Source: an uncultured Planctomycetales bacterium (GTDB taxonomy: Bacteria > Omnitrophota > Gorgyraeia > Zapsychrales > JAHFFX01). Taken from it: a DNA stretch of 64,000 nucleotides. The stretch is from NCBI GenBank assembly GCA_964464475.1, contig CAYXGG010000001.1, positions 87,174 through 151,173 of the forward strand, given 5' to 3'. Below are positions 6,894 through 62,096 of this stretch, one piece after another. Every line of letters begins with the position of its first letter. Positions within the stretch are counted from its first letter, which is position 1. The notes under the pieces are model-generated. The model did no database searches, was not told the DNA's origin, and saw nothing but the letters and a program-made list of their open reading frames with translations. The position numbers were made by a program, and so were the translations under genes.

Positions 6894-7024
6894 AGCAAAA
6901 AGTATACCATGAATAATTTTTGTTTGCCAAATTCAGGGTGAAATGCTGATGAAAATCGTTTAATGTTAATTTTATTGGACACGTCTTAAGTCGTTGGGTA
7001 ATATAAATTTACTCTATGTCCGGA

Positions 7025-7052
7025 TTTGTCTATGACAGTCATGTTGATTTTG
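7025..7052 (+). promoter_or_regulatory. Conserved upstream motif (candidate enhancer / PrsR-binding site), copy 1
   Basis: TTTGTCTATGACAGTCATGTTGATTTTG contains the nested palindromes TGTC-N3-GACA and ATGAC-A-GTCAT. Twenty of its first 21 nt recur at 56044. It lies about 150 bp upstream of the sigma-54 promoter at 7176. Confidence 0.5.
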
Positions 7053-7175
7053 GGCAACATAGGATTTCAATTTTAGTGTTGTGAAAATAATGATTGTTGA
7101 TAATATTGATCGTAAGTTATTTGAAATTATATATTTGCAGCTTTAAGGCAAGAAATTGTCTGGGATTGTCTAGGA

Positions 7176-7536: not shown

Positions 7537-8358
7537 ATGCGAATCATTAGGATAATTAATCAATTAGTTCTAGGGGTTATGTGTTTTTCCAGCTTAGTTT
7601 GGGCTGAAAATCAAGGAAATTTTGTCGGTGGCGAAAGTGCCCAAGCTAAGGAAAAATGGCGTCCTCGGTCAGAACGAGTGAAAGAGCCAGAGCAAAAAGT
7701 GATCAGTGAGAGTAAAGAGCTAACAGCTGAAGAAATATTGATGCAGGTAGGCACAATGGCTGTTGCTGATGAGAAAGCCTACACATTGGGCATTGATGAT
7801 GTCTTGGAAATTCTGGTTCAGCGCCATCCCGAAGTCTCCGGTCAGTATGTCATTAATGGTGAAGGCAAGATTCAGTACGAATTTGTGGGAGATTTAAGTA
7901 TCGCGGGCTTAACCAAAGAGAAAGTTCGAGATTTAGTGGTTGAGCAATTATCAAAATATATTGTTTCACCCGATGTCACCGTAAAGATTATCGGTTATAA
8001 TAGCAAAGTGGTTTACGTGATCGGCGAAGTCGGTCGTCCAGGAAAGATTTTTATGCGGGGTGATACCATCACCGTTCGTGAAGCCTTGTTGGGCGCAGGA
8101 TTGCCGCTATTGTCTGCCGCAACGAAAAAAACTCGATTGATTACTCCTTCTGCGGATGGAAAACCCGCTCAGAAATTTATTAATGTTGAAGCTCTGCTTT
8201 ATGAAGGTGATTTAAGAGAAAACCTGGTGATGAATCCCGGTGACACGCTTTATATTCCCGCAACTGTTTTGGCAAAAGCTATGCGAGCCATCCAACCCGT
8301 CACACAACCACTGGGAGAAGCAGCGGGTACGACGCGATCGGTTTACCCCGGACTTTAA
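7537..8358 (+). CDS. Polysaccharide export protein (Wza/EpsE-like, Poly_export + SLBB domains)
   Basis: Signal peptide. PDVTVKIIGYNSKVVYVIGEVGRPGKI and GDTLYIP are Wza-family motifs. ATG 7537 follows ribosome-binding site AAGGAGAGA. Confidence 0.8.
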   Translation: MRIIRIINQLVLGVMCFSSLVWAENQGNFVGGESAQAKEKWRPRSERVKEPEQKVISESKELTAEEILMQVGTMAVADEKAYTLGIDDVLEILVQRHPEVSGQYVINGEGKIQYEFVGDLSIAGLTKEKVRDLVVEQLSKYIVSPDVTVKIIGYNSKVVYVIGEVGRPGKIFMRGDTITVREALLGAGLPLLSAATKKTRLITPSADGKPAQKFINVEALLYEGDLRENLVMNPGDTLYIPATVLAKAMRAIQPVTQPLGEAAGTTRSVYPGL

Positions 8359-47743: not shown

Positions 47744-50575
47744 ATGAGAAAAAACACAATAACAGTTCTTTTTCTGATGGGCTTTTGTTGGGGAGTGTCA
47801 GTTCCCTTAACGGAAGCGGCAACCTATTTTGTTCGACCAGATGGGGGTAACGCCACTCAGTGTACTGGTTTGAATGATGCCGCGTATCCAGGCAGCGGTA
47901 CCGCTCAAGCCTGTGCTTTAAATCACCCCTTTTGGGTGCTAGCTCCCAAGGGAAATAACCCATCCAAAATGCGAGGAGGGGATACCTTAATTATTGATGG
48001 TTCAAACAAAGCTCAATACATGATGGGTTGGGGAGCCCCCAATATTAACGATACGAGCATTTGTTATTCTGCATGGCCATGGGATTGTACGATGCGTCCG
48101 ATCCCTTCAGGTCCTGATCCGGCTCATCCTACCAGGATTTTGGGTAAGGGATGGGACACGGGTTGCGCCAATCCTCCTCAATTATGGGGTAAAGAAAAAG
48201 CATGGCATATTCTGACCTTGGCTGGAAGTAATAACGTAGAGGTCCAATGCTTGGAAATTACTGACCATGACCAGTGTCAATACTTGGGGCCTAATGGTTG
48301 TAATAACAGTAATGCCCCTTTTGGAAACTATGCGGTGATGGGTATTTTTGCCCAAGATAGTAATAATGTATTACTGAAGAATTTAAATATTCATGGTCTG
48401 CACACGGGTATAAAAGCAGGAAGAATTAAAGATTGGACCGTGGACAACACTAAAATCGTAGGGAACTCTTTTGTTGGCTGGAATGGTGATTTAGGCGGTG
48501 GAGTTAGTTCATCAAATTCAGGAACAATCACTTTTAATAAGAGTGTGATTGCTTATAGCGGTTGCGGTGAAACTTATCCGGGCAATCAACCGTATAACTG
48601 CTATAGCCAGGATCAAGGTGGCTATGGTGACGGTTTCGGAACAGAGAAAACGGGCGGAAACTGGATATTTAACAATGTGGATTTTAGCCATAATGTTTCC
48701 GATGGTTTAGATCTTCTTTATCATGATGGCAATGGTTCAATAACCATTAAACGGTCTCGATTTGAGGGCAATGCAGGAAACCAAGTTAAAACGGCGGGAA
48801 GTGCTGTAATAGAGAATTCGCTGTTGGTTGGAAATTGTGGTTACTTTAAAGATAAAGCATTCACTTATTCGGTCGGTGGTTTTAACCATTGTCGTGCCGC
48901 AGGCTCGACCTTAGCCGCTTTATTTTTCACCGGGAGCAAAGTCAGCTTGATGAATTCAACTCTTACCGGAAATGGTGACTCATTGATTATTTCTTCAGGA
49001 TCTACCTGTAATGGGACAGAATCCTTTACCTCAAGAAATAATATTATACTCGGTGGCACGGAATTCAACGATGGGGCCGACCTTAGCTCGTTGTATTATG
49101 CAACTGGAGCTATGGGAAATGGTGATGGGCCATGTGGAGCTGTTCAATTTGTGGACGCAGGTTCTGTATATTGGAACATAAAGAACCAAGTCAATGTTTG
49201 TGCCCAAAGACCGGGTTCTAAATGTGCTGATCCAAAATTTATTGGTCCAGTTGTTAAATATTTTTCTGGTGATGCTTATAATTTAGCTTTGAACGCAGAT
49301 AGTCCTGCGCGTAGTTTTGCCCAGGAATTAACTGGTATGTCGACGTTGGATTATAATAATTTTGACCGTGGATCAGATTGGGATTCGGGTGCTCTGGAAT
49401 ATGGCTCTGTATCTACCGTTGCGGCCGCCAGTATCTGTGGGAATAAATTAGTCGAGTATCCTGAGCAGTGTGATGACGGTAATTTAGTCAACGGTGATGG
49501 ATGTAATGCCTCATGCATCATTGAATCGCCTTCTGTCCCAGTGTGTGGTAATAAGGTTAAAGAAGGATCTGAACAATGTGATGACGGTAATCTAACGAAT
49601 GGCGATGGATGTAATAATGTTTGTCAAATCGAAGTGGCATCGCCGGTTTGTGGAAACGGTAAATTAGAGAGTTCAGAGCAGTGTGATGACGGCAACGTTT
49701 TAAATAATGATGGATGTAGCAGCGTTTGCCAGGTAGAGATTCTATCTGTTTGCGGTAACGCGAAGCTTGAGAGTGGTGAGCAATGCGATGATGGTAATAA
49801 GGTAAGTGGTGATGGGTGCTCTAGTTCTTGTGTAAGAGAGTTACCCATTTGCGGAAATGCTAAGTTGGAAGGTTCAGAGCAGTGTGACGATGGTAACTTA
49901 ATTAGCGGAGATGGGTGCTCTAGTTCTTGTGTGAAAGAGCTGCCGGTCTGTGGTAACGCGAAGCTCGAGAGTGGTGAGCAGTGCGATGATGGAAATAACA
50001 CCAATAATGATGGTTGCTCAAGCTCTTGTTTAAAAGAGAGTTTACCAGTCTGCGGAAATGGCATTAAAGAAGGAACCGAGGTTTGTGACGACGGCAACCT
50101 AGTGAGTAATGATGGCTGTAATAGCATTTGCAAAGCGGAATGGTGTGGTAACGGTATTAAAGAAGGACCGGAGCAATGCGATGATGGCAACTGGATTAAT
50201 CGGGATGGTTGCAGCGCATTGTGTATTTTGGAAAGTGTTAAACCAGTTTGCGGAAATGGAAAAAAAGAAGGAACCGAAGCTTGTGACGATGGAAATTTGG
50301 TGAGTAATGATGGGTGCTCAAGTAGCTGTAGTATTGAGCAAACACCTATCCCTGTGTGCGGAAATGAAAAGATAGAATCCCCTGAAACGTGCGATGATGG
50401 TAATAGAACTAGTGGGGATGGATGTAGCAGCAGTTGCCAAAAAGAGGTGGTAACGACCAGGCCGGTTTGTGGTAACGGTAAGTTGGAAGGTTCAGAACAG
50501 TGCGATGATGGTAACCGAGTCAGCGGTGACGGATGTAACCGCTATTGCAAAAAGGAGAGAATAAGAACCAGGTAA
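47744..50575 (+). CDS. Secreted 943-aa protein: N-terminal right-handed parallel beta-helix (pectate-lyase-like) domain plus 13 tandem cysteine-rich repeats
   Basis: Signal peptide (MRKNTITVLFLMGFCWGVSVPLTEA). Asparagine/glycine-rich beta-helix rungs with NNV repeats. About 565 aa of CGNxKxExxEQCDDGNxxxGDGCxxxC repeats (Myxococcus cysteine-rich repeat type). No PEP-CTERM tail. Confidence 0.8.
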   Translation: MRKNTITVLFLMGFCWGVSVPLTEAATYFVRPDGGNATQCTGLNDAAYPGSGTAQACALNHPFWVLAPKGNNPSKMRGGDTLIIDGSNKAQYMMGWGAPNINDTSICYSAWPWDCTMRPIPSGPDPAHPTRILGKGWDTGCANPPQLWGKEKAWHILTLAGSNNVEVQCLEITDHDQCQYLGPNGCNNSNAPFGNYAVMGIFAQDSNNVLLKNLNIHGLHTGIKAGRIKDWTVDNTKIVGNSFVGWNGDLGGGVSSSNSGTITFNKSVIAYSGCGETYPGNQPYNCYSQDQGGYGDGFGTEKTGGNWIFNNVDFSHNVSDGLDLLYHDGNGSITIKRSRFEGNAGNQVKTAGSAVIENSLLVGNCGYFKDKAFTYSVGGFNHCRAAGSTLAALFFTGSKVSLMNSTLTGNGDSLIISSGSTCNGTESFTSRNNIILGGTEFNDGADLSSLYYATGAMGNGDGPCGAVQFVDAGSVYWNIKNQVNVCAQRPGSKCADPKFIGPVVKYFSGDAYNLALNADSPARSFAQELTGMSTLDYNNFDRGSDWDSGALEYGSVSTVAAASICGNKLVEYPEQCDDGNLVNGDGCNASCIIESPSVPVCGNKVKEGSEQCDDGNLTNGDGCNNVCQIEVASPVCGNGKLESSEQCDDGNVLNNDGCSSVCQVEILSVCGNAKLESGEQCDDGNKVSGDGCSSSCVRELPICGNAKLEGSEQCDDGNLISGDGCSSSCVKELPVCGNAKLESGEQCDDGNNTNNDGCSSSCLKESLPVCGNGIKEGTEVCDDGNLVSNDGCNSICKAEWCGNGIKEGPEQCDDGNWINRDGCSALCILESVKPVCGNGKKEGTEACDDGNLVSNDGCSSSCSIEQTPIPVCGNEKIESPETCDDGNRTSGDGCSSSCQKEVVTTRPVCGNGKLEGSEQCDDGNRVSGDGCNRYCKKERIRTR
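49438..50565 (+). repeat. Thirteen imperfect tandem DNA repeats (about 114-120 bp) encoding the cysteine-rich modules
   Basis: Near-identical units recur, e.g. ggtaacgcgaagctYgagagtggtgagcaRtgcgatgatgg at about 49747 and 49955, and gatgggtgctctagttcttgtgt at 49811 and 49911. Confidence 0.85.
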
Positions 50576-50698: not shown

Positions 50699-51109
50699 AT
50701 GGTCGGTCCAAATTGCAAATTTAGTACTCATCCTTTTAAAAGAACTGGTTTTTCGCTTGTTGAATTATTAATTTCCGCGTTTGTTCTAAGCGTTGGAATC
50801 GCGGGAACGCTTATGTTCTTTACTTCCGCTTTGATTTCAGCAGATTTTGCTTTAGAGACTACTTTGGCTACATCTCATGCCGAGTTGATATTTGAAGAAA
50901 TGCGCTCCAAGGAAGCAATCCAAGAAATTACTTTTGTTGATTGGAATGAGTGGTTAAAAAAGCAGGATGTTAGCTTATTGCCCGAAGAGGCGGTTGAAAT
51001 TTCATATCTTGATCCAGCGAAAAGTCCTTTCCCCGTCAGCATGAAGGTTTCCTGGAGAGGGCGAGCCAGAATTCAAACCCAGGAATTTTATACTACTTTT
51101 ATTAAATGA
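50699..51109 (+). CDS. Prepilin-type N-terminal cleavage/methylation domain protein (minor pilin/pseudopilin-like)
   Basis: KRTGFSLVELLISAFVLSVGIAGTLMFF matches the G-F-[ST]-L-[IV]-E class-III signal peptide. Confidence 0.65.
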   Translation: MVGPNCKFSTHPFKRTGFSLVELLISAFVLSVGIAGTLMFFTSALISADFALETTLATSHAELIFEEMRSKEAIQEITFVDWNEWLKKQDVSLLPEEAVEISYLDPAKSPFPVSMKVSWRGRARIQTQEFYTTFIK

Positions 51110-51591
51110 ATTTTATTCGTCAGAAGCGAGCTTATACATTAATTGAAGTGTTAGTTAGTATCGCTATTTTTTCATTCATTCTGATGGCGCTTTATCAAAT
51201 GTTTGCTGTTGGTAATCGCTCCTGGGCTAACTATAACGAAAAGGTCGCTTTGCAGCGGGAGATTCGTTGGTCCATGTACGCCGTAGTCAAAGAGTTAAGA
51301 GAAGCCAAAAACATTTTTGTTACGGATGATTCTGAGAAAGTAAAAATTGCTTTTAAGAAAGACAATTTAGGAAGCTTTGCTTTCGTTTTTATGAAAACTG
51401 GGCAACAGAGAAATAAATTATTTTTCGAGCGACCTAATCAAAAGCGGGTTCTCTCTAGCAGTGTAACAAATCTTAAAGTAGATCAAATCAGTAAACACCT
51501 GATAGAAATTGAAATTACGGGAATGAAGCAGCCGTTGTTTTCCAAATTGATTACTTTTAAGCTAAAGCAACGGATTCTTCTTAGGAACTAA
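51106..51591 (+). CDS. Prepilin-type N-terminal domain protein (pseudopilin-like, variant Ala at the cleavage site)
   Basis: QKRAYTLIEVLVSIAIFSFILMAL. Start overlaps the previous stop (ATGA). Confidence 0.6.
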   Translation: MNFIRQKRAYTLIEVLVSIAIFSFILMALYQMFAVGNRSWANYNEKVALQREIRWSMYAVVKELREAKNIFVTDDSEKVKIAFKKDNLGSFAFVFMKTGQQRNKLFFERPNQKRVLSSSVTNLKVDQISKHLIEIEITGMKQPLFSKLITFKLKQRILLRN

Positions 51592-51596
51592 ATTTC

Positions 51597-52751
51597 ATGA
51601 TTTGCTCTCAAATGAAAAGAAGTCGATTGCGTAACGAACGAGGGTCTATATTAATTTTTGCTTATTTTTTGTTGGCTTTTCTCGTGACGTTATCGGCGGG
51701 TTTTGCTTTAACCAATTTTGGAGAATTAAATGATAGTCGGCGCTATTTGAATTCGGTAAAGGCGTTTTGGCTTGCGGAAGCGGCACTTAATGAGTATTTG
51801 CAAGAGCCAGAAATATTAGACGGTTTTCGTCAGAAGACATTGGAATATCCTGGGGGGCAGGTTGTTTTGCAAAAAGATGATTCTCAGCCCATGCTGCGAA
51901 TTCTTACGGCAAAAGCTAATGTGAGTGGCAGCGAACGTGAAATTACGATGGAATTCCCAGCACATGCACCGGAAGTTTTTAATAATACTATTTCTGCTCG
52001 CGGGGACATAGACTTAAGTGGCAGTAAGATTTCAGCCACTTTTACCGGTAAAACAAAAGTAAGCGGAAAGTTAAGAAAATCATATAAATTCGGTAGTGCA
52101 ATTTTTGAAGATTTAAGTGAGAACGTTGATAAGAATTTGGTGACGATGTTTTACCCGGACGCTAATAATAATGGTGTTGTTGATGAATTCGATGATTTTG
52201 TGGCTATTAATCGTAATATTATCGAGAATTATTCTTCTGATGAGGTGGTTTATTTGCGAGGCAATGATACATTTACGGTGGTCCCCGATGCTAAGCTGGC
52301 GGGTAAGAAAATTTTATATGCCGAGGGTACTAAGAGTGGAAAGGGAAGTGTCGTGATTCAGTTTACCGGAGAACTTAATCCAGAAGAAAATCTTACGGTG
52401 ATTTCCACCGGAACGGTAAGCTTTAATCAGTTGGGAGGGCAGACCGACTCGCAGTTAAATATTATTGCCTGGGAAGGGTATCGAGAGATGGCCACGTTGC
52501 CAGGAGAGCATAAGGGCATTACCTACACGCATGGGAGTGCCGTTATCGATCGAATTCATGAAGAATCTGTTTCGCATGGAATTTTGGTCGCTCACAGTGG
52601 CGTTTCGGTGAAAGAAATTTGGGCGAATAAGCTTTTTCAATACGCTGATCCTCGAGTCAAAGGGCTAATCCCTCCTGGTTTTGAAGGTATGATTGGCGGG
52701 AAGCTTTCGGCTGGATACTTGTCGGAGCCGAGTGTCTGGAGGGAAAAATAA
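51597..52751 (+). CDS. PilX-N-like minor pilin/pseudopilin-associated protein
   Basis: NERGSILIFAYFLLAFLVTLSAGFA resembles the PilX_N domain, with a ~330-aa beta-rich C-terminal part. Confidence 0.5.
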   Translation: MICSQMKRSRLRNERGSILIFAYFLLAFLVTLSAGFALTNFGELNDSRRYLNSVKAFWLAEAALNEYLQEPEILDGFRQKTLEYPGGQVVLQKDDSQPMLRILTAKANVSGSEREITMEFPAHAPEVFNNTISARGDIDLSGSKISATFTGKTKVSGKLRKSYKFGSAIFEDLSENVDKNLVTMFYPDANNNGVVDEFDDFVAINRNIIENYSSDEVVYLRGNDTFTVVPDAKLAGKKILYAEGTKSGKGSVVIQFTGELNPEENLTVISTGTVSFNQLGGQTDSQLNIIAWEGYREMATLPGEHKGITYTHGSAVIDRIHEESVSHGILVAHSGVSVKEIWANKLFQYADPRVKGLIPPGFEGMIGGKLSAGYLSEPSVWREK

Positions 52752-53296: not shown

Positions 53297-54481
53297 ATGG
53301 AATTATTAATGGTTGTGTATTTCTGGTTTTTTCTATTTGCCATTGTTTTTTGCTATTTTGGTTATCCATCGATTCTGGCTTTGGTGAGCCGCTGGCGGGG
53401 TTGCGCTGTTGCCGTAAGCCCTAGTGAGGCGGCCCGGGTATCGGTTATTATTGCGGTTTGCAATGAAGAGGATGTTCTTGAACGTAAGTTGAATAATATT
53501 TTTTCTTTAGAGTTCCCTTCTCAATTTGAAATTTTGATTGGTTCGGATGGTTCTACAGATCAAACAGAAAGAATTCTTAAAGATTATAAAGACGAGAGAT
53601 TGAGGCCTTATGTTTATTCTGAACGTAGGGGGAAAATAGCAGTCATTGCTGATTTGGTGACGCAAGCCAAAGGGGATATCGTTGTTTTTACTGATGCTAG
53701 ACAGCAATTTGCGAAAAATGCGATAGTGGAACTAGTTAAAAATTTTGGGGATCCAAAGGTGGGCTGTGTTAGTGGAGAGTTGGTGTTTCATAGCAGTCAG
53801 GGAACTACAGGCAAAGGTATTCAATTGTATTGGGATTATGAGAAATGGTTGCGGCGCATGGAGAGTCAGATCCACTCTATGTTGGGAGCGACGGGTGCCA
53901 TTTATGCGATCAGAAAAGAGTTGTTTGTGAAGCCGCCGCCTGATGTTGTTCTCGATGATATGTACATTCCTTTAAAGATTGTAGCCGGTGGCTATCGCGC
54001 TATTTTTGAAGAAAATGCTCGTGCCTATGATCACGTTGCGGAAGATGGGGGAGAGGAGTATTCTCGAAAAACTAGAACGCTTTACGGTAACTTTCAAATA
54101 TTCACTTTATTCTCTGAATTGTTTGATCTTCGGAAAAGTCCGGTGGCCTTGCAGTTGTTGTTTCATAAGTTTCTAAGAGTCGTGGTGCCGTTCTTAATGA
54201 TTGCGTTTTTTGCAACTAATATTTTTTTGATTCCTCATGGTTGGTTCTTTTTCTCGGTTATGCTAGGGCAAATTTTATTTTATGGATTAGCGCTTTTAGG
54301 ATGGTGGTCTAGAAAAAATAGTTCTTTTCTGGATAAGTATATTAATAAACTTTCTGCTATCCCTTATGTTTTTTGTTTGTTAAATTATTCTGCTTTTATT
54401 GGTTTCGTTCGATTTGTTAAAAGGGATCAGGCCGTTGCCTGGCAAAAGGCGCGTTCGGCTAGGGAAGCCGCCAATTGCTAA
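53297..54481 (+). CDS. Membrane glycosyltransferase family 2 (cellulose/chitin-synthase-like, exosortase-associated)
   Basis: VSVIIAVCNEEDVLERKL...ILIGSDGSTDQT...FTDARQ, with N- and C-terminal transmembrane helices. Confidence 0.7.
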   Translation: MELLMVVYFWFFLFAIVFCYFGYPSILALVSRWRGCAVAVSPSEAARVSVIIAVCNEEDVLERKLNNIFSLEFPSQFEILIGSDGSTDQTERILKDYKDERLRPYVYSERRGKIAVIADLVTQAKGDIVVFTDARQQFAKNAIVELVKNFGDPKVGCVSGELVFHSSQGTTGKGIQLYWDYEKWLRRMESQIHSMLGATGAIYAIRKELFVKPPPDVVLDDMYIPLKIVAGGYRAIFEENARAYDHVAEDGGEEYSRKTRTLYGNFQIFTLFSELFDLRKSPVALQLLFHKFLRVVVPFLMIAFFATNIFLIPHGWFFFSVMLGQILFYGLALLGWWSRKNSSFLDKYINKLSAIPYVFCLLNYSAFIGFVRFVKRDQAVAWQKARSAREAANC

Positions 54482-54487
54482 TTCGTT

Positions 54488-55306
54488 ATGCCAATTATTA
54501 GAAAATATGCCGCAGAGTTGTTGGTCGGTGGGCTTTTTTTGTTAGCCTATTTTCCTATTTTATTATGGATGTTTAGTCGTTGGTTTGCGAGAGACTCTTA
54601 CTATAGTCACGGGATATTGGTTCCTTTTGTGGCCGCTTTTTTAATCTGGCAAAATCGGGATGAATTAACTAAAATTCAGAGAGTTCCAGATTATCGTGGG
54701 CTGATATTGATTTTTATCGGTCTATTTGTTTTAGTGGTTAGTTCGACGTTAAGAATATACTTTTCAGCGGCGTTTAGTATGCCCATAGTTTTAGTTGGGC
54801 TGGTGATGCTTTTTGGGGGAAATAGTTTATTGAAGGCTCTTTCGTTCCCGCTGGCGTTCACATTATTCATGATCCCATTGCCAGAGGTCGTTATTACCAA
54901 TATTAGTTTTAATATGAAAATATTTGCGGCGCAAATTGCCACGCATGTTTTAAATAATAATCTAAGAATGCCAGCGGTACGCGAGGGGAGTCTTATTAAA
55001 ATGCGCAGTGCCTATGTCATGGTGGATGATGTGTGTAGTGGTTTAAGATCGCTTATTTCATTGACTGCTTTGGGTAGTGTTTTTGCTTACTGGTTAAAGG
55101 GCGCTTGGTGGAAGAGGTTGCTTCTATTTGCTTCAACGATCCCCATTGCCATTATTACCAATGTCGTTCGGATTATCTTTCTTTCCGCAGTGAGTGAGAT
55201 TTGGGGGCCACAATACGCTTCTGGATTTTTGCATGATCTTTCGGGGTTTTTGGTTTTTGGATTGGCCTTCTTATTATTATTTGCAGTTTCAAAGCTAATA
55301 GAATAA
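54488..55306 (+). CDS. Exosortase (EpsH/XrtA family transpeptidase)
   Basis: Eight transmembrane helices. The conserved Cys lies in MVDDVCSGLRSLISL and the Arg in ITNVVRIIFL. The N-terminus MPIIRKYAAELLVGGLFLLAYFPILLWMFSRW is typical. Confidence 0.85.
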   Translation: MPIIRKYAAELLVGGLFLLAYFPILLWMFSRWFARDSYYSHGILVPFVAAFLIWQNRDELTKIQRVPDYRGLILIFIGLFVLVVSSTLRIYFSAAFSMPIVLVGLVMLFGGNSLLKALSFPLAFTLFMIPLPEVVITNISFNMKIFAAQIATHVLNNNLRMPAVREGSLIKMRSAYVMVDDVCSGLRSLISLTALGSVFAYWLKGAWWKRLLLFASTIPIAIITNVVRIIFLSAVSEIWGPQYASGFLHDLSGFLVFGLAFLLLFAVSKLIE

Positions 55307-55307
55307 A

Positions 55308-55949
55308 ATGTTGATAAAAAAATCAGCTTATGTAGTAATTTTGGTTTCATTTTTGGGGGTCGGGTTCATTTCTTGGTTGTTGTATTTTAAAGATCAGAAC
55401 CAACAAGATACGGTTAATATTCAAGTTTTCCCGAAGGCTATAGCTGACTGGAGCGGGGTAGATCAAGTTATTAGCGAAGAAGACTATGCTATTTTGGAAA
55501 CCAGAAATGTTCTGGCTCGAAGATACACTCAGGCTGGTACGGGTCGACAAATAGATTTACTTATTGTTTATTCAGAGCATAATCGTAAAGTGTCTCATCC
55601 TCCCGAGATTTGTTTTACGGGTGGTGGGTTGTCTATTCTGGAAAGTAAGCGCGCAGTCTTAAATCTAGATAAGAACGGCCGAGGGTTAGAAGCGGTGCGG
55701 CTGCTTATGGATTTGAAGGGAACGCCGCTGTATTCCTTCTATTGGTTTAAAGTCGGTAATTCTGTAACCTCTAACTACTGGAGGCAACAATTTTTGATTG
55801 CTTTAAAGATTTTTTCTGGGCAACCGCATAGTAGCGCCTTGATAAGGTTGACATTAGAAATAAAACTGGATGACAAAATCGAAGCCGTTGCTACTGCGGA
55901 GAAGTTCGCCGATCTTGTTTTTCCTGCCGTAAAGCAGTATCTGCCGTAA
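55308..55949 (+). CDS. EpsI-family exosortase-associated protein
   Basis: N-terminal transmembrane segment then the EpsI domain, immediately after the exosortase gene (1-nt gap). Confidence 0.75.
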   Translation: MLIKKSAYVVILVSFLGVGFISWLLYFKDQNQQDTVNIQVFPKAIADWSGVDQVISEEDYAILETRNVLARRYTQAGTGRQIDLLIVYSEHNRKVSHPPEICFTGGGLSILESKRAVLNLDKNGRGLEAVRLLMDLKGTPLYSFYWFKVGNSVTSNYWRQQFLIALKIFSGQPHSSALIRLTLEIKLDDKIEAVATAEKFADLVFPAVKQYLP

Positions 55950-56172: not shown

Positions 56173-56188
56173 TGGCACAAAATTTGCT
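56173..56188 (+). promoter_or_regulatory. Sigma-54 (-24/-12) promoter
   Basis: TGGCAC-AAAAT-TTGCT matches the consensus perfectly, 47 bp upstream of ATG 56235. Confidence 0.7.
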
Positions 56189-56234: not shown

Positions 56235-57059
56235 ATGAGTCGATATACTAAATTAATATTTTTGAGCATATTAGCAATTTTGACCGTGGTAAGTACTGTT
56301 TTTGCTATACCGGTTAAATCTGATGACGCTAGGGAAGTCATAGAAGAGGCAAGGATTTCTCAAATTCCGGCTCAGTTGCCAACAGATTCGAAGTCTAGAG
56401 CTCCGGAGCCCACGTCCATGGCGCTTTTTGGGAGTGGTATATTGGGGATGGTTGTCAGTTTCTTTCGTCGTACCTATATTTTGATAAAGAGAGCATTTGA
56501 TGTTTTTGCTGCGATCCTAGGTTTGCTGTTCTTGGCGCCGCTTTTTGTTATTGCCGCTTTCTTGATAAAATTTACTTCAAAAGGGCCAATTATTTATAAG
56601 CAAGTTAGAGTTGGAAAAAACGGTAAGCTTTTTGAAATTTATAAATTTCGTTCAATGCGTACGGATGCTGAAAAAGATAGTGGCCCTGTTTGGGCTAAAG
56701 CCAACGATAATCGTCTCATCCCGCCGGGAAAATTTTTAAGAAAAACCCGAATTGATGAATTACCTCAATTTATTAATGTTCTAAAAGGTGATATGAGCTT
56801 GATCGGGCCTCGTCCGGAGCGACCTGTTTTTGTTGAGAAATTTAAAGAAGTTATTCCTGACTACGAGAAGCGTCTGGCCGTCAAACCTGGGATTACGGGA
56901 TTAGCTCAAGTGTGGCATAAATATGATGAAACGATTGAGGATGTTAAAAAGAAAATTCGTTATGATTTGGTTTATATTAAAAAAGTCAATTTGTGGACTG
57001 ATTTAGGAATATTTTTTAGAACATTTCGAGTTGTTATTACTGGTCAAGGCGCTCAATAA
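56235..57059 (+). CDS. Bacterial sugar transferase (polyprenyl-phosphate phosphoglycosyl transferase, small WbaP/PglC type) with an in-frame N-terminal signal peptide plus PEP-CTERM-like motif
   Basis: Residues 1-79 form a signal peptide and ...SRAPEPTSMALFGSGILGMVVSFFRR (PEP, a transmembrane helix, then RR). This runs without a stop into IKRAFDVFAAILGLLFLAPLF...GPIIYKQVRVGKNGKLFEIYKFRSMR...GPRPERP, the sugar-transferase core. A TTG at 56481 would give a typical MIKRAFD start but has no ribosome-binding site. Confidence 0.7.
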   Translation: MSRYTKLIFLSILAILTVVSTVFAIPVKSDDAREVIEEARISQIPAQLPTDSKSRAPEPTSMALFGSGILGMVVSFFRRTYILIKRAFDVFAAILGLLFLAPLFVIAAFLIKFTSKGPIIYKQVRVGKNGKLFEIYKFRSMRTDAEKDSGPVWAKANDNRLIPPGKFLRKTRIDELPQFINVLKGDMSLIGPRPERPVFVEKFKEVIPDYEKRLAVKPGITGLAQVWHKYDETIEDVKKKIRYDLVYIKKVNLWTDLGIFFRTFRVVITGQGAQ

Positions 57060-57146: not shown

Positions 57147-57428
57147 ATGAAAAGTACATTTTCAAAGTTAAAAATTTTATCTTTGTTAGGATTTATGCCT
57201 GCAATTTATGGTTGTGGGGCTGGTGGTGGGGCTTTAGGGGCTCTTTTTGGTGCAGTGGGTGGAGGTGTTGCTTCAGCTTTTGGTGGAGGTGGTTCTTTAG
57301 CGTTAGACAGTGGGGGTGGCAGTGGTGGTATTGGTGTTGCGACATTTCATAATCCAGAACCCACATCAATGGCATTATTAGGAACAGGGATGGCTGCCAT
57401 GGCGCTTTATCGAAAGTTTAAGAAATAG
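57147..57428 (+). CDS. Small glycine-rich PEP-CTERM protein (exosortase substrate)
   Basis: Signal peptide (possible lipobox IYGC), about 45 aa of glycine-rich low-complexity sequence, then C-terminal PEPTSMALLGTGMAAMALYRKFKK. Ribosome-binding site TAAGGAG. Confidence 0.8.
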   Translation: MKSTFSKLKILSLLGFMPAIYGCGAGGGALGALFGAVGGGVASAFGGGGSLALDSGGGSGGIGVATFHNPEPTSMALLGTGMAAMALYRKFKK

Positions 57429-57609: not shown

Positions 57610-58479
57610 ATGCCTTCTCGAAGTAGTAAACACGTCATATCCTTACTGAAAACTGCTATTGTTGCGATAGTCGAGCATCCAATAATTTTGTTTCCTTTTT
57701 TGATTTTGGTATTTATTCAATTGTTGCTTCTAGAGGTTTTATTTTTTTCTCCGCGCTATCCTTTGTCAATATTTTTCTCCCCATTGATTCGCACTTTATA
57801 TGGAGAAGCTTTTTTACATTACCCAAACAACTTTATATTAATACCTAAACTTTTTCAATATGTGCAAATGGGGACGTACATTTTCTTTGCTAGTTATTTA
57901 ATTGGGGTATGTGTTGAAATTATTTACCTTATTAATGCCGAAAAGAAATTTACCCTAAGAGCTGTTTTTCGTAGCGTCTTGTCTAGATACGTACATTTAT
58001 TGATGGCGGCAGTAGTCATGTACGTAACGTTTTATTTATTCTTTAGTTCTTATGATGTTTTGTTGCAGCGAGCGAGAATGATTAGATCTGAAGCAGGGGT
58101 TTTCTTCTTAATAAAGGAAATAATTGTTGTTGCCACGCCTTATGTCAACCTTTTTGTAGGAGCCTTGGCGACCGCCCTATATGCATTTGTGGTTCCTTTT
58201 ATCGTGATTGACAGGAAAAAAGTATTTGTAGCAATATGGGAGAATTTTCGTTTATTAAGTAAATCATTTTGGATGGTTTTAGTCACGGTTATTCTGGCAA
58301 CAATGCTGTATTTGCCCATTTTATTTTTTCGGAATAACGTCGGCCTGTGGGCCGATGATTACTTTCCAAGTCTAAGGGTTTGGATTATTGTAATCAGTAT
58401 TATCGTTCAAGCCTTTATTGATTGCGTTATCTATTCGAGTCTAACAAGTTATTTTCTTTTTCTGAAAGAGCAGAAATGA
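57610..58479 (+). CDS. Polytopic membrane protein, unknown function
   Basis: About 8 transmembrane helices; no motifs. Confidence 0.45.
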   Translation: MPSRSSKHVISLLKTAIVAIVEHPIILFPFLILVFIQLLLLEVLFFSPRYPLSIFFSPLIRTLYGEAFLHYPNNFILIPKLFQYVQMGTYIFFASYLIGVCVEIIYLINAEKKFTLRAVFRSVLSRYVHLLMAAVVMYVTFYLFFSSYDVLLQRARMIRSEAGVFFLIKEIIVVATPYVNLFVGALATALYAFVVPFIVIDRKKVFVAIWENFRLLSKSFWMVLVTVILATMLYLPILFFRNNVGLWADDYFPSLRVWIIVISIIVQAFIDCVIYSSLTSYFLFLKEQK

Positions 58480-59384
58480 AGAAGTGCATTGTTTTTATGG
58501 TTCTTGTTTTGGGCGGGATGTTTCTTTTATTTACTGTTTTGGGTCAAGATGGTGATTATGGCGCAGAACAAGAAATGTGGATAGCTAACAAGAAATTTAA
58601 ATTAATTACTCTGGATCCGGCTAATACTCCAGATCAGGAATTTATTAGATTAGAAAAGGTTTATCGAAAAGTAATTAATCGGTACCCGAACTCGTATTTA
58701 ATTAATCAGGCGTATCTTAATATTGGAAGAATGTATGTCTATAAACGAGATTATCGACTAGCTAGAGAGAAGTATCAGGAGATAATAAGAAATTTTCCTC
58801 AAAATCGGATCCTGACATCTGAGGCTTGGATCGCGATGGGGCAGAGTTTTGAGCTGGAGGAGAACTCGCAGGAGGCATTGAGAATTTATAAAATGGTGAT
58901 TAACCAGTTTTCGGAGACTGACTCTGGGCTAATGGCTCCGCTGTATGTAATAAACTTTTTGAAGAAACTAAAGAAAGATGAGGATCTTGAGGAGTTTTTG
59001 ATTCAAGTTGAGCCGCATTATCGAAATTTAGCTAGTAAGCACAAGGGGTCAGCCTTAGAGATTAAATCATTACGTATGTTAACAAACGCTTATTTGCAGC
59101 AAGAGAAATGGGATGCCGCCGTATCTGTCTTGGGAGATATATTATTGCAGTCAATGGCTTCAAGCCAATTGACTCCACAAGAGGCAAATGTTCTTATAAG
59201 ATCAATAAACGCTATCTCAATTACTGAATTGAAGAATTATGATTTGCCGATTAAAATCTACGAAGAATTTATTGCCAGTTACCCTAACCACGGTCTTAGT
59301 CGCCTCATGAAGGAATTGATTAAAGCTTTGACTGCTTTGAAATCTCAGAAGGCGGAGTTTACTCCAAAGAGTTTTGTGCCATGA
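58476..59384 (+). CDS. Secreted TPR-repeat protein
   Basis: Signal peptide (MKKCIVFMVLVLGGMFLLFTVLG) and TPR-like helical repeats (YLNIGRMYVYKRDYRLAREKYQEIIRNFP). ATGA overlap with the previous gene. Confidence 0.55.
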   Translation: MKKCIVFMVLVLGGMFLLFTVLGQDGDYGAEQEMWIANKKFKLITLDPANTPDQEFIRLEKVYRKVINRYPNSYLINQAYLNIGRMYVYKRDYRLAREKYQEIIRNFPQNRILTSEAWIAMGQSFELEENSQEALRIYKMVINQFSETDSGLMAPLYVINFLKKLKKDEDLEEFLIQVEPHYRNLASKHKGSALEIKSLRMLTNAYLQQEKWDAAVSVLGDILLQSMASSQLTPQEANVLIRSINAISITELKNYDLPIKIYEEFIASYPNHGLSRLMKELIKALTALKSQKAEFTPKSFVP

Positions 59385-60700
59385 AAACTACTTCTGCTCA
59401 ACATTCTGAAGAGATGCTTTTGGGAAAGCCCAATGCTTTTCAAAAAGTCAGCGACATTTGTTCCGGTGTTAATTCGGTCAAAGACGAAAACGAGTTGCTG
59501 ACTCAGAATCTGGGTCAACTCTTAGAGCTATTCTCAGCCAGGAGGGGCTCGATATTTATTTTTAATGCCCGGCGAAAAGAGTTGGATCTTAAGGTATCTA
59601 AAGGAATGGCTACAGCTGAACAGAAACATTTGGTCAAGCGTATGGGGGAGGGAGTGGTTGGGAAAGTTGCAGAATTGAAGCAGCCAATTGTGGTTGATGA
59701 TATCTCTAAGGACGATCGGTTTCATAATTATCATGCTCGGGGAAGTTATCGTTCACCTTCTTTCATTTGTGCTCCTTTGTTGTTAAAAGATCAGTTGTTG
59801 GGAGTCATTAGTATCGCAGACAAAGTATCTGGACAGAGGTTTAGTAAAGATGAATTGCTTTTGCTCGACTTTTTGTCGAGTCAGATAGCCTTGAATTATA
59901 AACGGATAAAGTTATATAAGAAATTCAGAAATGTTATTAAAGAGGCGCAAAGTTTAAAGAACGCTTTGGGAAAAAAGTCCGATGAGGCTAATCAGCTCAG
60001 AAAACAGATCGTTGTTCAAGAAAAGTTTGCTTCTATTGGTAAATTGGCGGGTGGAATCGCGCATGAGTTTAATAATCCACTTGACGGGGTTATTCGATAC
60101 ACGAATCTTTCTTTAGAACATCTGAAGAATGATGATGTTGTTCGTGGGTATCTGTTGGAAATAAGGCAAGGATTGCATCGAATGGCCAATATTGTTAGGA
60201 ATTTATTGGCTTGTTCCCGAAATACTCAGGCAAGTATGCAAAAGGTTGATGTGAATCATCGAATTGAGCAGGTCGTGAATGGACTGCAGTCAGATTTTTT
60301 TATGAAGGGAATTAATTTGCGGAAGGATTTCTCTAAAGATATTCCGCTGGTCGTTGATTTAGGGTTAGACTTGATTTTCTCTAATTTACTAAGAAATGCT
60401 ATTGATGCGGTAAAATCAGGCGGTACTATAAAAATATCTACAAGGTTTGCTCAAGAAGTTCTTACTATCCGAGTTGAGGATAATGGATGCGGGATTCCCT
60501 CCGAAATGATGGAGCAGATATTTGAACCATTCTTCACCACTAAGGATATCGAGAAGGGGTGCGGTTTGGGTTTAACAATTGTAGATGAGATTGTCAAAAG
60601 TTATGGCGGGCGTATCCATTTGGAGAGTGCGCCGGATAAAGGAACGGCTTTTACGATCACATTACCAGCGAAGGTATCTACTTATGCAAAAAAACACTAA
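59381..60700 (+). CDS. Cytoplasmic GAF-domain sensor histidine kinase (PrsK-like position)
   Basis: GAF domain (GVVGKVAELKQPIVVDDISKDDRF). HisKA with the phospho-accepting His in GGIAHEFNNPL. HATPase_c N/G boxes (LRNAIDA, DNGCGIP, GCGLGL). No transmembrane segments. Confidence 0.8.
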   Translation: MKTTSAQHSEEMLLGKPNAFQKVSDICSGVNSVKDENELLTQNLGQLLELFSARRGSIFIFNARRKELDLKVSKGMATAEQKHLVKRMGEGVVGKVAELKQPIVVDDISKDDRFHNYHARGSYRSPSFICAPLLLKDQLLGVISIADKVSGQRFSKDELLLLDFLSSQIALNYKRIKLYKKFRNVIKEAQSLKNALGKKSDEANQLRKQIVVQEKFASIGKLAGGIAHEFNNPLDGVIRYTNLSLEHLKNDDVVRGYLLEIRQGLHRMANIVRNLLACSRNTQASMQKVDVNHRIEQVVNGLQSDFFMKGINLRKDFSKDIPLVVDLGLDLIFSNLLRNAIDAVKSGGTIKISTRFAQEVLTIRVEDNGCGIPSEMMEQIFEPFFTTKDIEKGCGLGLTIVDEIVKSYGGRIHLESAPDKGTAFTITLPAKVSTYAKKH

Positions 60701-62096
60701 CAATCATCTTCATATTTTGATTGTCGATGATGAGCCTTTGATACGTCAATCATTGTTTGAAAGTCTGAGGATTGAAGGTTTTCAAGCCACGATGTCGAGT
60801 AATGGCGAAGATGCCTTGGAAAAGTTAAGAAATAACAAAGTAGATATTCTATTAACTGATTTAAAGTTGCCCAAAATGTCCGGTATTCAATTGTTAGAGA
60901 AAGTTAAAAAAGACTACCCGCAAATTGAGGTGATTTTGATTACGGGATTTGGAACGATCGAGACGGCTGTTGAAGCGATGCGTAAAGGCGCTTACGACTA
61001 TATTACTAAGCCAATAAATGACCAAGAGGTGCGTTTGATTTTGCAGAAAATTGTGGAAAAGAAACAGATTCTGCAAGAAAACCAAGATTTAAAGAAAATT
61101 ATTGATAGAACGACGCCTAATTCATTTTGTAGTTTAGTCGGTCGCAGCGAGAAAATGCAGAAAGTTTATCAGATCATTGAATCAGTGGCGAGCACAAATG
61201 CGACTATATTAATTAATGGGGAGAGTGGCACGGGTAAAGGAATGACGGCTAACGCTATTCATCAAAGCGATCGACTCCGCGGCGATAAGCCATTTGTAGA
61301 GGTTAGTTGTGGGGCTTTATCGGAAACTTTGTTGGAAAGTGAGCTGTTTGGTCATGTGAAAGGGGCGTTTACGGGTGCAATTAAGGATAAGGAGGGGCGT
61401 TTTGAATTTGCCAAAGGGGGTACCATCTTTCTCGATGAAATTGACGCCTTTTCGCCTAATTTGCAGGTTAAGTTATTGAGGGTTCTTCAAGATGGGGTTT
61501 TTGAAAGAGTGGGGGATAATAAAACGCGCCACGCGGATGTGCGAATTATTGTGGCTACTAACCAAAATCTAAATGAATTGGTCGCGAAGGGGAAGTTTCG
61601 AGAGGATTTGTATTATCGCATTAATGTCATTGCCATTCCTTTGCCACCCTTAAGAGAGCGTCGGGATGATATTGAGTTTTTAGCCAAATTCTTTATTGAG
61701 AAATACAGTAAAATTAATCGTAAGTCTGTGTCTGGGCTTTCATTGGAAGCTTTGGATCTTTTTAAGGGGTACCATTGGCCTGGAAATGTTCGAGAGCTCG
61801 AAAATGCTATTGAGGGTGCTGTTATTATGGCCAAAAAAGAAATAATTCAAAAAGAGGATATTCCATCTGTTAATCGGATGTTGGAGGGGTATGGCGCTCG
61901 CTCGGCGATGGTTGGTTCGAGTTCAGATTTGGATCAATCTCTGAAGAAAAATTTAGAAACACCTGAGAAAGAACTTATTCTTGCAGTGTTAGAAGAATGT
62001 CGCTGGAATAGAAATAAGGCTGCTGAAAGGTTAGGAATTAATCGGACCACGTTGTATAACAAAATGAAGAAGTACAATATATCTTTTGATAAATAA
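60684..62096 (+). CDS. Sigma-54-dependent response regulator (NtrC family; PEP-CTERM-box regulator PrsR-like)
   Basis: Receiver domain (ILIVDDEP...D in DLKLPKMSG). AAA+ Walker A GESGTGKG, the GAFTGA motif and the ESELFGH arginine-finger region. C-terminal Fis-type helix-turn-helix (RWNRNKAAERLGINRTTLYNKMKK). Start at internal ATG 60684; the upstream part of the tracked ORF is an out-of-frame extension into the kinase gene. Confidence 0.85.
   Translation: MQKNTNNHLHILIVDDEPLIRQSLFESLRIEGFQATMSSNGEDALEKLRNNKVDILLTDLKLPKMSGIQLLEKVKKDYPQIEVILITGFGTIETAVEAMRKGAYDYITKPINDQEVRLILQKIVEKKQILQENQDLKKIIDRTTPNSFCSLVGRSEKMQKVYQIIESVASTNATILINGESGTGKGMTANAIHQSDRLRGDKPFVEVSCGALSETLLESELFGHVKGAFTGAIKDKEGRFEFAKGGTIFLDEIDAFSPNLQVKLLRVLQDGVFERVGDNKTRHADVRIIVATNQNLNELVAKGKFREDLYYRINVIAIPLPPLRERRDDIEFLAKFFIEKYSKINRKSVSGLSLEALDLFKGYHWPGNVRELENAIEGAVIMAKKEIIQKEDIPSVNRMLEGYGARSAMVGSSSDLDQSLKKNLETPEKELILAVLEECRWNRNKAAERLGINRTTLYNKMKKYNISFDK

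Follow-up and report, generated by a model that had tools for sequence, protein, structure and literature searches.

A PEP-CTERM sorting signal fused in frame ahead of a small phosphoglycosyl transferase in Omnitrophota

The 64,000-nt stretch of DNA analyzed here (referred to as the window) originates from an uncultured bacterium of the Omnitrophota, a poorly understood and mostly uncultured phylum, and corresponds to positions 87,174 to 151,173 of contig CAYXGG010000001.1 (assembly GCA_964464475.1). It carries a gene for a small monotopic phosphoglycosyl transferase (PGT), the enzyme that primes glycan synthesis, in which a PEP-CTERM module, i.e. the recognition signal of exosortases, is fused in frame ahead of a complete catalytic part. 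Judging by its pattern of conservation, this tag-PGT fusion is genuine, ancient and strongly selected. Coordinates are counted from the first letter of the window; related loci are designated L001 and onwards, and homologous proteins P0001 and onwards.

Organization of the tagged PGT gene

The gene begins with an ATG codon, with the sequence AAGGA located 6 nt upstream, and an identical protein (P0001) is present in public data on a 167-kb contig. In the initial annotation of the window, made from the letters alone, the first 79 codons were read as a signal peptide, a spacer and a PEP-CTERM signal running without a stop into a complete small PGT. This reading was borne out by the open reading frame and by its matches to PF07589 and PF02397, and the gene can be divided as follows:

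56235..57059, + strand: PEP-CTERM-tagged small monotopic PGT gene, 274 amino acids (aa) plus stop, ATG start (PF07589, PF02397, TIGR03025)
56235..56306, + strand: codons 1-24, predicted signal peptide MSRYTKLIFLSILAILTVVSTVFA (hydrophobic stretch 4-29, two K/R in the n-region)
56307..56399, + strand: codons 25-55, putative periplasmic spacer IPVKSDDAREVIEEARISQIPAQLPTDSKSR of 31 aa (poorly conserved; predicted local distance difference test score, pLDDT, below 50 in the AlphaFold 2 (AF2) model)
56400..56471, + strand: codons 56-79, PEP-CTERM module composed of APEP, TSMALFGSGILGMVVSFF and RR (PF07589); the whole module reads APEPTSMALFGSGILGMVVSFFRR
56472..56573, + strand: codons 80-113, basic linker (TYILIKR) and predicted re-entrant membrane helix (AFDVFAAILGLLFLAPLFVIAAFLIKF) with a kink at A101-P102 (PglC alignment)
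56574..57056, + strand: codons 114-274, predicted cytoplasmic PGT catalytic domain with KFRSM, the Asp174-Glu175 dyad in RIDELPQ, and GPRPERP (PF02397; alignment to WbaP 8t53 and PglC)

The tag has the tripartite anatomy of PEP-CTERM domains, namely P57-E58-P59, a helix (residues 60-77) and the basic pair R78-R79. PF07589 matches residues 56-79 over model positions 2-24 of 24, with 21.7 bits against a gathering cutoff of 20.7 (E 2e-4). Instead of lying at the extreme C-terminus of the protein, the domain is followed by 195 residues.

The sequence after the tag, TYILIKRAFDVF..., leads into a complete sugar-phosphate transferase. Residues 85-268 match the Bac_transf family PF02397 (231.2 bits, cutoff 27), and the protein also passes the cutoff of TIGR03025, the model for exopolysaccharide biosynthesis polyprenyl glycosylphosphotransferases (312.6 bits against 295.55). 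It remains below the cutoff of TIGR03013 (273.7 against 393.35), and in this case the catalytic part alone (residues 82-273) aligns, to model positions 252-442. The solved PglC structures (8g1n, 8e37; E ~1e-30) align from residue 83 and WbaP 8t53 from residue 76 (E 2.7e-35), hence the first ~82 residues are extra to a complete small PGT. The hallmarks of small PGTs are all found: a re-entrant helix with K/R, Asp and a (Ser/Ala)-Pro break, and the Asp-Glu catalytic dyad. The protein nevertheless departs from the 'core only' definition of small PGTs in the classification summary of PMC10312794, as it bears 82 additional N-terminal residues including a membrane-spanning helix.

Three hydrophobic segments were detected, at residues 4-29 (signal peptide), 60-77 (tag helix) and 86-115 (re-entrant helix), and four K/R fall in residues 78-89, between the tag helix and the re-entrant helix. 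The tag helix is predicted to cross the membrane from the outer to the inner face and to be followed by a re-entrant helix, with the catalytic domain in the cytoplasm. This topology fits both these charges and the start of PglC homology at residue 83, in agreement with the topology argued for in the initial annotation. Cleavage of the signal peptide is predicted from the -3/-1 rule and from a conserved family consensus ending in TAWA↓T; in the window protein the predicted signal peptidase I site is VFA↓IP (segment ending TVFA↓IP).

Conservation of the fusion among homologues

Thousands of relatives were retrieved from 5.8 billion proteins, and the best 120 (59-81% identity, 250-330 aa) were analyzed. 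They come from independent assemblies (NCBI, ENA, JGI, Logan) and are named Omnitrophota or Omnitrophica wherever the source gives a name. The xAPEP motif occurs at the same place in 119 of these 120 homologues, and in 118 of them exactly 28 residues separate the first Pro of PEP from the K-R-x-x-D that opens the re-entrant helix.

Conservation, expressed as the mean frequency of the commonest residue in a 117-sequence alignment, reaches 0.79 in the tag and 0.83 in the catalytic domain but only 0.38 in the spacer and 0.39 in the signal peptide. By this measure selection acts on the tag and not on the sequence ahead of it. In an alignment of 40 sequences, with the consensus KSRAPEPxTLALFGSGxLGMIxSFVRRTYxxxKRxFD, the invariant positions of the tag and junction are A56, P57, E58, P59, G66, G71, M72 and Y81; those of the PGT part are K85, R86, D89, P102, D174, E175 and the P192-P197 stretch. 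The junction RRTYxxxKR is kept at the protein level across the tagged PGT family. Since the tag is conserved like the catalytic domain and the junction is kept, the reading frame across the junction is translated and under strong purifying selection.

The initial annotation had also considered that a lost stop codon or a frameshift joined a small PEP-CTERM gene to a separate, TTG-initiated transferase, and had proposed a comparison with orthologues. Such an accident or artefact is suggested by the in-frame TTG at 56481, immediately before the PglC-homologous region, and by the occurrence of small PEP-CTERM genes in the locus, but it is virtually out of the question, because the orthologues show a fusion and not two genes in the same 119 of 120 cases, the junction is conserved as protein with Y81 invariant, and three syntenic loci (L001-L003) carry the identical single-gene architecture. 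The TTG, which indeed lacks a Shine-Dalgarno sequence as was originally noted, is codon 83 (Leu) and falls on a variable position of the family. Junction conservation, variability of codon 83 and the missing ribosome-binding site led us to reject an internal start at this triplet.

Architecture of the wider family

A profile of the tag and re-entrant helix was searched against 1.84 billion representatives clustered at 50% identity. Among the best 149 inspected, approximately 36, including divergent subfamilies, have the PEP/helix/basic module ahead of the re-entrant helix in the 28-residue register. The length of the sequence ahead of the tag in these relatives ranges from 0 to about 265 aa, and three classes can be distinguished. 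Judged from the sequences compared, the constant unit consists of PEP, the transmembrane helix, the basic linker and the re-entrant helix in fixed register.

Class A, which includes the window protein and belongs to Omnitrophota, has a signal peptide and 8-45 residues before PEP. In class B, the signal peptide is followed by a domain of 60-265 aa. The best-sampled of these N-terminal domains (245 aa) is common to ~18 full-length relatives of P0201 and shows 42-82% identity in the fused state. The same domain also occurs as stand-alone proteins (P0413-P0417, 54-57% identity), which end 2-8 residues after the tag helix, like ordinary PEP-CTERM proteins. On the basis of this sequence similarity, the class B PGTs and P0413-P0417 constitute a textbook Rosetta-stone pair. 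Class B tagged PGTs (P0201, P0391, P0395, P0397, P0405) additionally carry an Arg-rich insert of ~25 aa, e.g. DKRFSQRRVNQRKISDRRRKEA, before KFRTM in the catalytic domain.

Class C proteins begin directly with MPEP and have no signal peptide at all. This start was found in 83 of the 116 closest homologues of P0246, one of which is named Planctomycetota. M1, P2, E3 and P4 never vary in an alignment of 58 proteins picked for their MPEP start. At the DNA level (L005, L086, L087), in-frame stops are located 11-47 codons upstream, no hydrophobic leader is encoded, and ribosome-binding sites lie 8-9 nt before the ATG, which argues that the MPEP start is real.

Some relatives have lost PEP while keeping the extra helix, the signal peptide and the 28-residue spacing, namely the L089 PGT (6285-7166, + strand; FPW in place of the motif), P0155 and P0149. 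In L089 this is the case although an exosortase locus is present. The C-terminal extension of P0149 resembles, by eye, a penicillin-binding-protein transpeptidase domain.

The tagged PGT is common in Omnitrophota and present in at least one metagenome-assembled genome (MAG) labelled Planctomycetota, an assignment of tagged PGTs to taxa that rests on few source names. A scan of a genome collection with the tag + re-entrant-helix alignment gave, among the matches listed, ordinary PGTs of many phyla (generic FxxYKFRTM). One tagged homologue, P0379, carries the source label 'Candidatus Bathyarchaeia archaeon'; it most likely represents a mis-binned bacterial contig in an archaeal MAG.

Exosortase neighborhood and locus context

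The window is a large polysaccharide island encoding a Wzm/Wzt ABC transporter, many GT4 and GT2 glycosyltransferases, sugar-modifying enzymes and a Wzy_C-like protein. These genes are followed, in this order, by a GT2 gene (53297-54481), the exosortase, EpsI, the PGT, a small PEP-CTERM protein and a 289-aa membrane protein, and further downstream by genes for a tetratricopeptide repeat (TPR) protein, a GAF histidine kinase, a sigma-54-dependent response regulator and a PocR/GAF protein. The features surrounding the PGT gene are:

54488..55306, + strand: exosortase, 272 aa, presumed partner of the tag (PF09721, 226.7 bits)
55308..55949, + strand: EpsI, exosortase-associated periplasmic protein, 213 aa (TIGR02914, 79.4 against 42.8 bits; PF11984, 110.6 bits)
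56173..56187, + strand: match to the sigma-54-type promoter consensus, TGGCACaaaatTTGC, 48 nt 5' of the PGT start codon
57147..57428, + strand: canonical C-terminal PEP-CTERM substrate, 93 aa, Gly-rich (TIGR02595, 21.7 against 16 bits; PF07589, 22.9 bits)
59381..60700, + strand: GAF histidine kinase, likely regulator (GAF, HisKA, HATPase_c; conserved in L001-L003)
60585..62096, + strand: sigma-54-dependent response regulator (Response_reg, Sigma54_activat, HTH_8; conserved in L001, L003 and L088)

The exosortase gene ends 929 nt and the EpsI gene 286 nt 5' of the PGT start. The order exosortase-EpsI-PGT is kept in L001-L003, whose orthologous PGTs share ~60% identity, and recurs with small insertions in L088, which belongs to a short-spacer Omnitrophota subfamily. 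The distance between the PGT gene and an exosortase gene does not exceed ~6 kb in the window, L001-L003, L005 and L086-L089, and L005 is the only one of these in which it is more than 3 kb. Of the eight related loci examined, seven have both an exosortase and EpsI within ~6 kb, as in the window, and the class B locus L004 has EpsI only, 7 kb from the PGT. The loci with EpsI close to the PGT include those of class C (L005, L086 and L087), and in L087 the exosortase and EpsI are fused. Neither gene was found in the 13.5 kb examined of the other class B locus, L090, where the PGT is only 4 kb from the contig end.

The window exosortase passes the general models (TIGR02602, 179.8 bits against 105.55; TIGR04178 signature, 75.5 against 23) and retains the Cys, Arg and His signature, with Cys183 in DDVCSGLRS and His249 in FLHDLSG. 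None of the named Xrt types (XrtA, XrtD, XrtW and others) was reached at cutoff, XrtA giving 175.1 against 208. Similarly, the partner exosortases of L001, L005, L086, L087 and L088 match TIGR02602 only and stay below every named Xrt cutoff. The exosortases encoded beside PEP-tagged PGTs may form, on these profile scores, at least one unnamed exosortase subtype. As the exosortase falls below the XrtA cutoff and the PrsK model is likewise below cutoff, the locus does not qualify as an XrtA-type system; with a TIGR02916 score of 96.8 against 300, the identification of the GAF histidine kinase as PrsK was rejected.

The consensus TGGCAC-N5-TTGC has one exact match in the 64-kb window (56173-56187), and the same element lies just 5' of the orthologous PGT genes in L001 (7935-7949) and L003 (7954-7968). 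In L002 the element (8002-8016) overlaps the called PGT start, which suggests that the gene call (P0077) begins too far upstream. The element is a putative promoter, and the response regulator encoded at 60585-62096 is its likely activator. As the consensus precedes the PGT gene and a gap of 87 nt separates the latter from the small PEP-CTERM gene, the two may constitute a single sigma-54-activated unit, and the small gene is probably co-transcribed with the PGT gene. The initial annotation had placed this PEP-CTERM protein 88 bp downstream and pointed to its resemblance to the tag; PEPTSMAL is indeed common to both, and the distance needs to be corrected by one nucleotide.

The tail of the small PEP-CTERM protein reads NPEPTSMALLGTGMAAMALYRKFKK, with a stop codon directly after the basic tail, and orthologues are located downstream of the tagged PGT in L001 (~10111) and L003 (~10092). 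Apart from this tail and the PGT tag, the window contains no PEP/helix/basic motif. A lipobox-like AIYG↓C is present in the protein as well, and its motif is of the NPEP type, reading HNPEP in the window and in L003 and TNPEP in L001; a predicted lipoprotein and exosortase substrate in one protein (57147-57428) is unusual. In L004, the PGT tag shares 61-62% identity with the tails of two PEP-CTERM proteins encoded beside it. The idea that the N-terminal domain of the L004 PGT (P0151) is a paralogue of these proteins was rejected, since only the ~30-residue tag region aligns. We also dropped the suggestion that the tag helix of PGTs is systematically longer than the helices of substrates, as in both, by eye, the first polar or basic residue comes after ~15 hydrophobic ones.

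Proposed function of the tag

Based on these observations, we suggest that the tag makes the PGT a ligand of the exosortase/EpsI system, acting as a tethered or docked pseudo-substrate. We regard this as rather likely. The tag unit and the exosortase system are constant, whereas the supposed cargo may be anything from a folded domain to no residue at all, which argues that the tag is a functional element and not a sorting device. Because the part ahead of the tag is dispensable, the likely role shifts from sorting the PGT to tethering it to the exosortase. The tag conservation of 0.79 and the exosortase gene nearby support the view, one of the two alternatives of the initial annotation, that this is a real, selected exosortase-type tag on the priming enzyme.

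According to this proposal, the signal peptide and the 31-aa spacer of the window PGT would have the sole task of bringing the PEP motif to the outer face of the membrane, where the substrate site of the exosortase would take up the PEP helix. The PGT would then either be held as a docked pseudo-substrate or be clipped at PEP, with the helix-PGT fragment staying in the membrane. In either case the initiation of polysaccharide synthesis on undecaprenyl phosphate would be localized to, or controlled by, the PEP-CTERM-processing machine. Binding or cleavage of the PGT tag by the exosortase, and a coupling of glycan priming to exosortase action, are what we infer from the gene structure and its context.

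In the AF2 models, the window PGT (mean pLDDT 74.6) was given helices at 69-99 and 101-114 and a break at residue 100, and a class C PGT (mean pLDDT 88) with a helix at 4-44 and a kink before Pro47. The fixed 28-residue spacing, along with the confidently helical linker in these models, suggests a rigid connection between tag and PGT, and such a link would fix the position of the PGT active site relative to the PEP motif.

A number of points weigh against the role of the tag as an exosortase ligand. The PEP-CTERM profile match of the window PGT taken alone is borderline, as TIGR02595 was not reported for its tag at E ≤ 0.01; it is reinforced by precomputed PF07589 matches, which many homologues carry along with PF02397. 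Adjacency to an exosortase is by itself no proof of a tag-mediated interaction, because PGT genes are common in exosortase loci (e.g. TIGR03013). The tags are 0.37 identical to substrates of their own locus (20 pairs) and 0.31 to those of other loci (160 pairs), a covariation that is too weak to use, with clear local similarity only in the window and L004. Since the PEP-less relatives keep the helix and its spacing, the extra helix seems to have some PEP-independent role. In both AF2 models the tag helix, the linker and the first half of the re-entrant helix form a single straight helix; this modelled geometry cannot hold in a bilayer and is uninformative on docking or on packing onto the re-entrant helix. 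We know of no experiment or structure in which an exosortase binds or cleaves an internal PEP-CTERM signal. Lastly, non-C-terminal instances of PEP-CTERM were regarded as probably non-functional by Haft et al. 2006 (PMC1569441), a view to which the tagged PGT family is a clear counter-example.

Alternatively, the PGT might be a true cleaved substrate. The exosortase would cut at PEP and release or transfer what lies before it, which is a 31-aa peptide in the window protein and a folded domain in the long-form relatives, and the PGT would be the fragment that stays behind. Cleavage would then be a maturation or activation switch, or a means of stoichiometric co-delivery of cargo and enzyme. This explanation overlaps with the ligand proposal and differs from it only by requiring cleavage for function. 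It is consistent with the presence of all three canonical parts of the sorting signal and a score above the Pfam cutoff, with the class B N-terminal domain, which elsewhere is a normal, presumably cleaved PEP-CTERM cargo and is conserved (42-82%) when fused, and with the view of exosortases as Cys endopeptidases or, possibly, transpeptidases (Haft 2023, 10.1101/2023.06.07.544157). On the other hand, the MPEP-start relatives have nothing to release, yet M-P-E-P is invariant in the 58 sequences chosen for that start. In the window's family the spacer is poorly conserved, its value of 0.38 making a functional released peptide unlikely. On balance we consider obligatory cleavage rather unlikely.

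An extended form of the ligand proposal, which is unlikely but worth stating, is that the PEP helix of the PGT fills the active-site groove of the exosortase, and that the PGT is thereby joined to the Cys transpeptidase in a single membrane complex, where exosortase activity and glycan initiation gate each other. Incoming PEP-CTERM substrates might displace or clip the tag and thereby turn priming on, or the lipid-linked glycan made by the PGT might be the acceptor for PEP-CTERM proteins.

It is also conceivable, although quite improbable, that the module is a membrane anchor only. Here, an ancestral fusion with a PEP-CTERM gene would have provided a helix that gives the PGT a bitopic anchor or stabilizes its re-entrant helix, and PEP would be kept for local structure (e.g. 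helix capping at the interface) and not for any interaction with the exosortase. The PEP-less PGTs described above (L089, P0155, P0149), the rigid helical connection from the tag helix to the re-entrant helix in the AF2 models and the weak covariation with local substrates all speak for such a role. However, it leaves unexplained why APEP is invariant in 40 aligned sequences at ~60% identity, why the tag is as conserved as the catalytic core and why so many of the closest P0246 homologues (83 of 116) start with MPEP. Moreover, the Gly-rich LFGSGxLGM pattern typical of PEP-CTERM helices is retained, and an exosortase gene is found near the PGT in the window and in seven related loci.

Comparison with known systems

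The canonical PEP-CTERM/exosortase (EpsH/Xrt) system (Haft et al. 2006, PMC1569441) is recognizable in the window in the predicted signal peptide, in the tag, where PEP is directly followed by a Gly-rich helix and then a basic cluster and PF07589 is above cutoff, and in the position of the PGT gene next to the exosortase and EpsI genes in a polysaccharide locus with sigma-54-type two-component regulators. PF02397 is itself listed among the exosortase co-located families in that study. The differences concern the tag. In ordinary substrates the PEP-CTERM domain is followed by a median of 3 residues to the C-terminus, and the tails are described as fast-evolving and more alike within than between species (PMC1569441). 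The PGT tag, in contrast, is internal with a whole enzyme behind it and is conserved between species like the catalytic domain, whereas the part ahead of it is short, poorly conserved or, in relatives, absent.

A different link is represented by TIGR03013 (EpsB_2), the XrtA-linked PGT, in which priming PGTs of the Bac_transf type occur in exosortase loci and the association is implied by gene context. In the window, instead, the recognition signal is physically fused to a small PGT. The proteins of TIGR03013, which are large PGTs, are not known to carry a PEP module.

The catalytic part resembles the small monotopic PGTs of the PglC type (8g1n, 8e37; PMC10312794) from residue 83 to the end, with the K-R...D...(S/A)-P helix, KFR(S/T)M, the Asp-Glu dyad and GPRPERP. 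PglC is purely monotopic with nothing before the re-entrant helix, whereas the window PGT is predicted to be bitopic plus re-entrant with a periplasmic segment. Large (WbaP/WcaJ) and bifunctional monotopic PGTs provide, in the classification summary of the same paper, a parallel in that their catalytic core is N-terminally extended by accessory elements thought to be regulatory or organizing. The window PGT, unlike these, lacks a four-helix bundle and the PF13727 nucleotide-sensing domain; its accessory element is a protein-sorting signal, a kind that goes unmentioned in that summary.

The archaeosortase ArtA with its PGF-CTERM substrates belongs to a homologous enzyme family and recognizes a tripartite signal as well. 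As summarized in 10.1101/2023.06.07.544157, ArtA joins removal of the helix to attachment to a membrane lipid, which sets a precedent for sorting coupled to lipid-linked chemistry. The signal of ArtA substrates described there lies at the extreme C-terminus, with no case of an enzyme after it. Whether exosortase chemistry is that of an endopeptidase or a one-step transpeptidase is under discussion (Haft 2023 preprint, 10.1101/2023.06.07.544157).

A PEP-CTERM/PGT fusion was not described in the full-text literature searched, subscription papers and database comments being outside that search. No NCBIfam model captured the fusion in a scan of the window protein, and in source annotations tagged PGTs appear simply as "sugar transferase" or "polyprenyl glycosylphosphotransferase". 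That PGT genes are associated with exosortase genes in genomes is already known; the new element is the recognition signal fused to the PGT, which is undescribed as far as could be determined.

Other genes of the locus

The 289-aa membrane protein mentioned above (57610-58479, + strand) represents a polytopic type of ~280-300 aa without any Pfam or NCBIfam match. Counterparts are encoded in L001 (10480-11343), L002 (14259-15134), L003 (10461-11330), L004 (9589-10458), L088 (13084-13932), L089 (7171-8004) and L090 (5600-6496). The gene is conserved 3' of tagged PGT or PEP-CTERM genes and is directly followed by the TPR protein in 7 of 8 loci; in L089 a PEP-CTERM gene intervenes between the two. 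We consider this protein a candidate for an uncharacterized component of the exosortase subtype.

Two gene starts deserve a comment. The listed start of the TPR gene (58422-59384, + strand) overlaps the upstream gene by 58 nt, and the probable start is the internal MKKCIVF. That of the response regulator gene overlaps its upstream neighbor by 116 nt; as the receiver domain begins at residue 44, the protein probably starts near residue 40, downstream of 60585.

Within the polysaccharide island, a secreted 943-aa protein (47744-50575, + strand) contains, after its N-terminal domain, ~13 tandem Cys-rich repeats of the type CGNxKxExxEQCDDGNxxxxDGCxxxC and has no PEP-CTERM signal. Between this gene and the GT2/exosortase block lies a further block (50699-52751, + strand) with at least two consecutive genes for proteins with prepilin-type N-termini, at 50699-51109 (FSLVELLIS) and 51106-51591 (YTLIEVLVS), followed by a 384-aa gene product with a hydrophobic N-terminus.

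Implications

With a cargo domain, a short peptide or nothing before its tag, the tagged PGT may be seen as a natural "Rosetta stone" between exosortase recognition and glycan priming. It bears on two questions still posed some 20 years after the PEP-CTERM/exosortase system was defined, namely the target to which substrates are attached and the reason why the system is always embedded in exopolysaccharide loci. The conserved internal tag is at odds with the working premise that PEP-CTERM motifs away from the C-terminus are degenerate. As regards PGTs, it adds a type of N-terminal accessory element, a sorting signal, to the classification into small, large and bifunctional enzymes.

Through the fusion, consumption of the scarce undecaprenyl-phosphate pool could be linked to a secretion or anchoring machine. 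The PGT and the exosortase constitute a small, tractable pair of proteins for studies of binding, cleavage site, transpeptidation and regulation. If a gated PGT-exosortase complex does exist, it would be the first direct molecular link of an exosortase to polysaccharide assembly.

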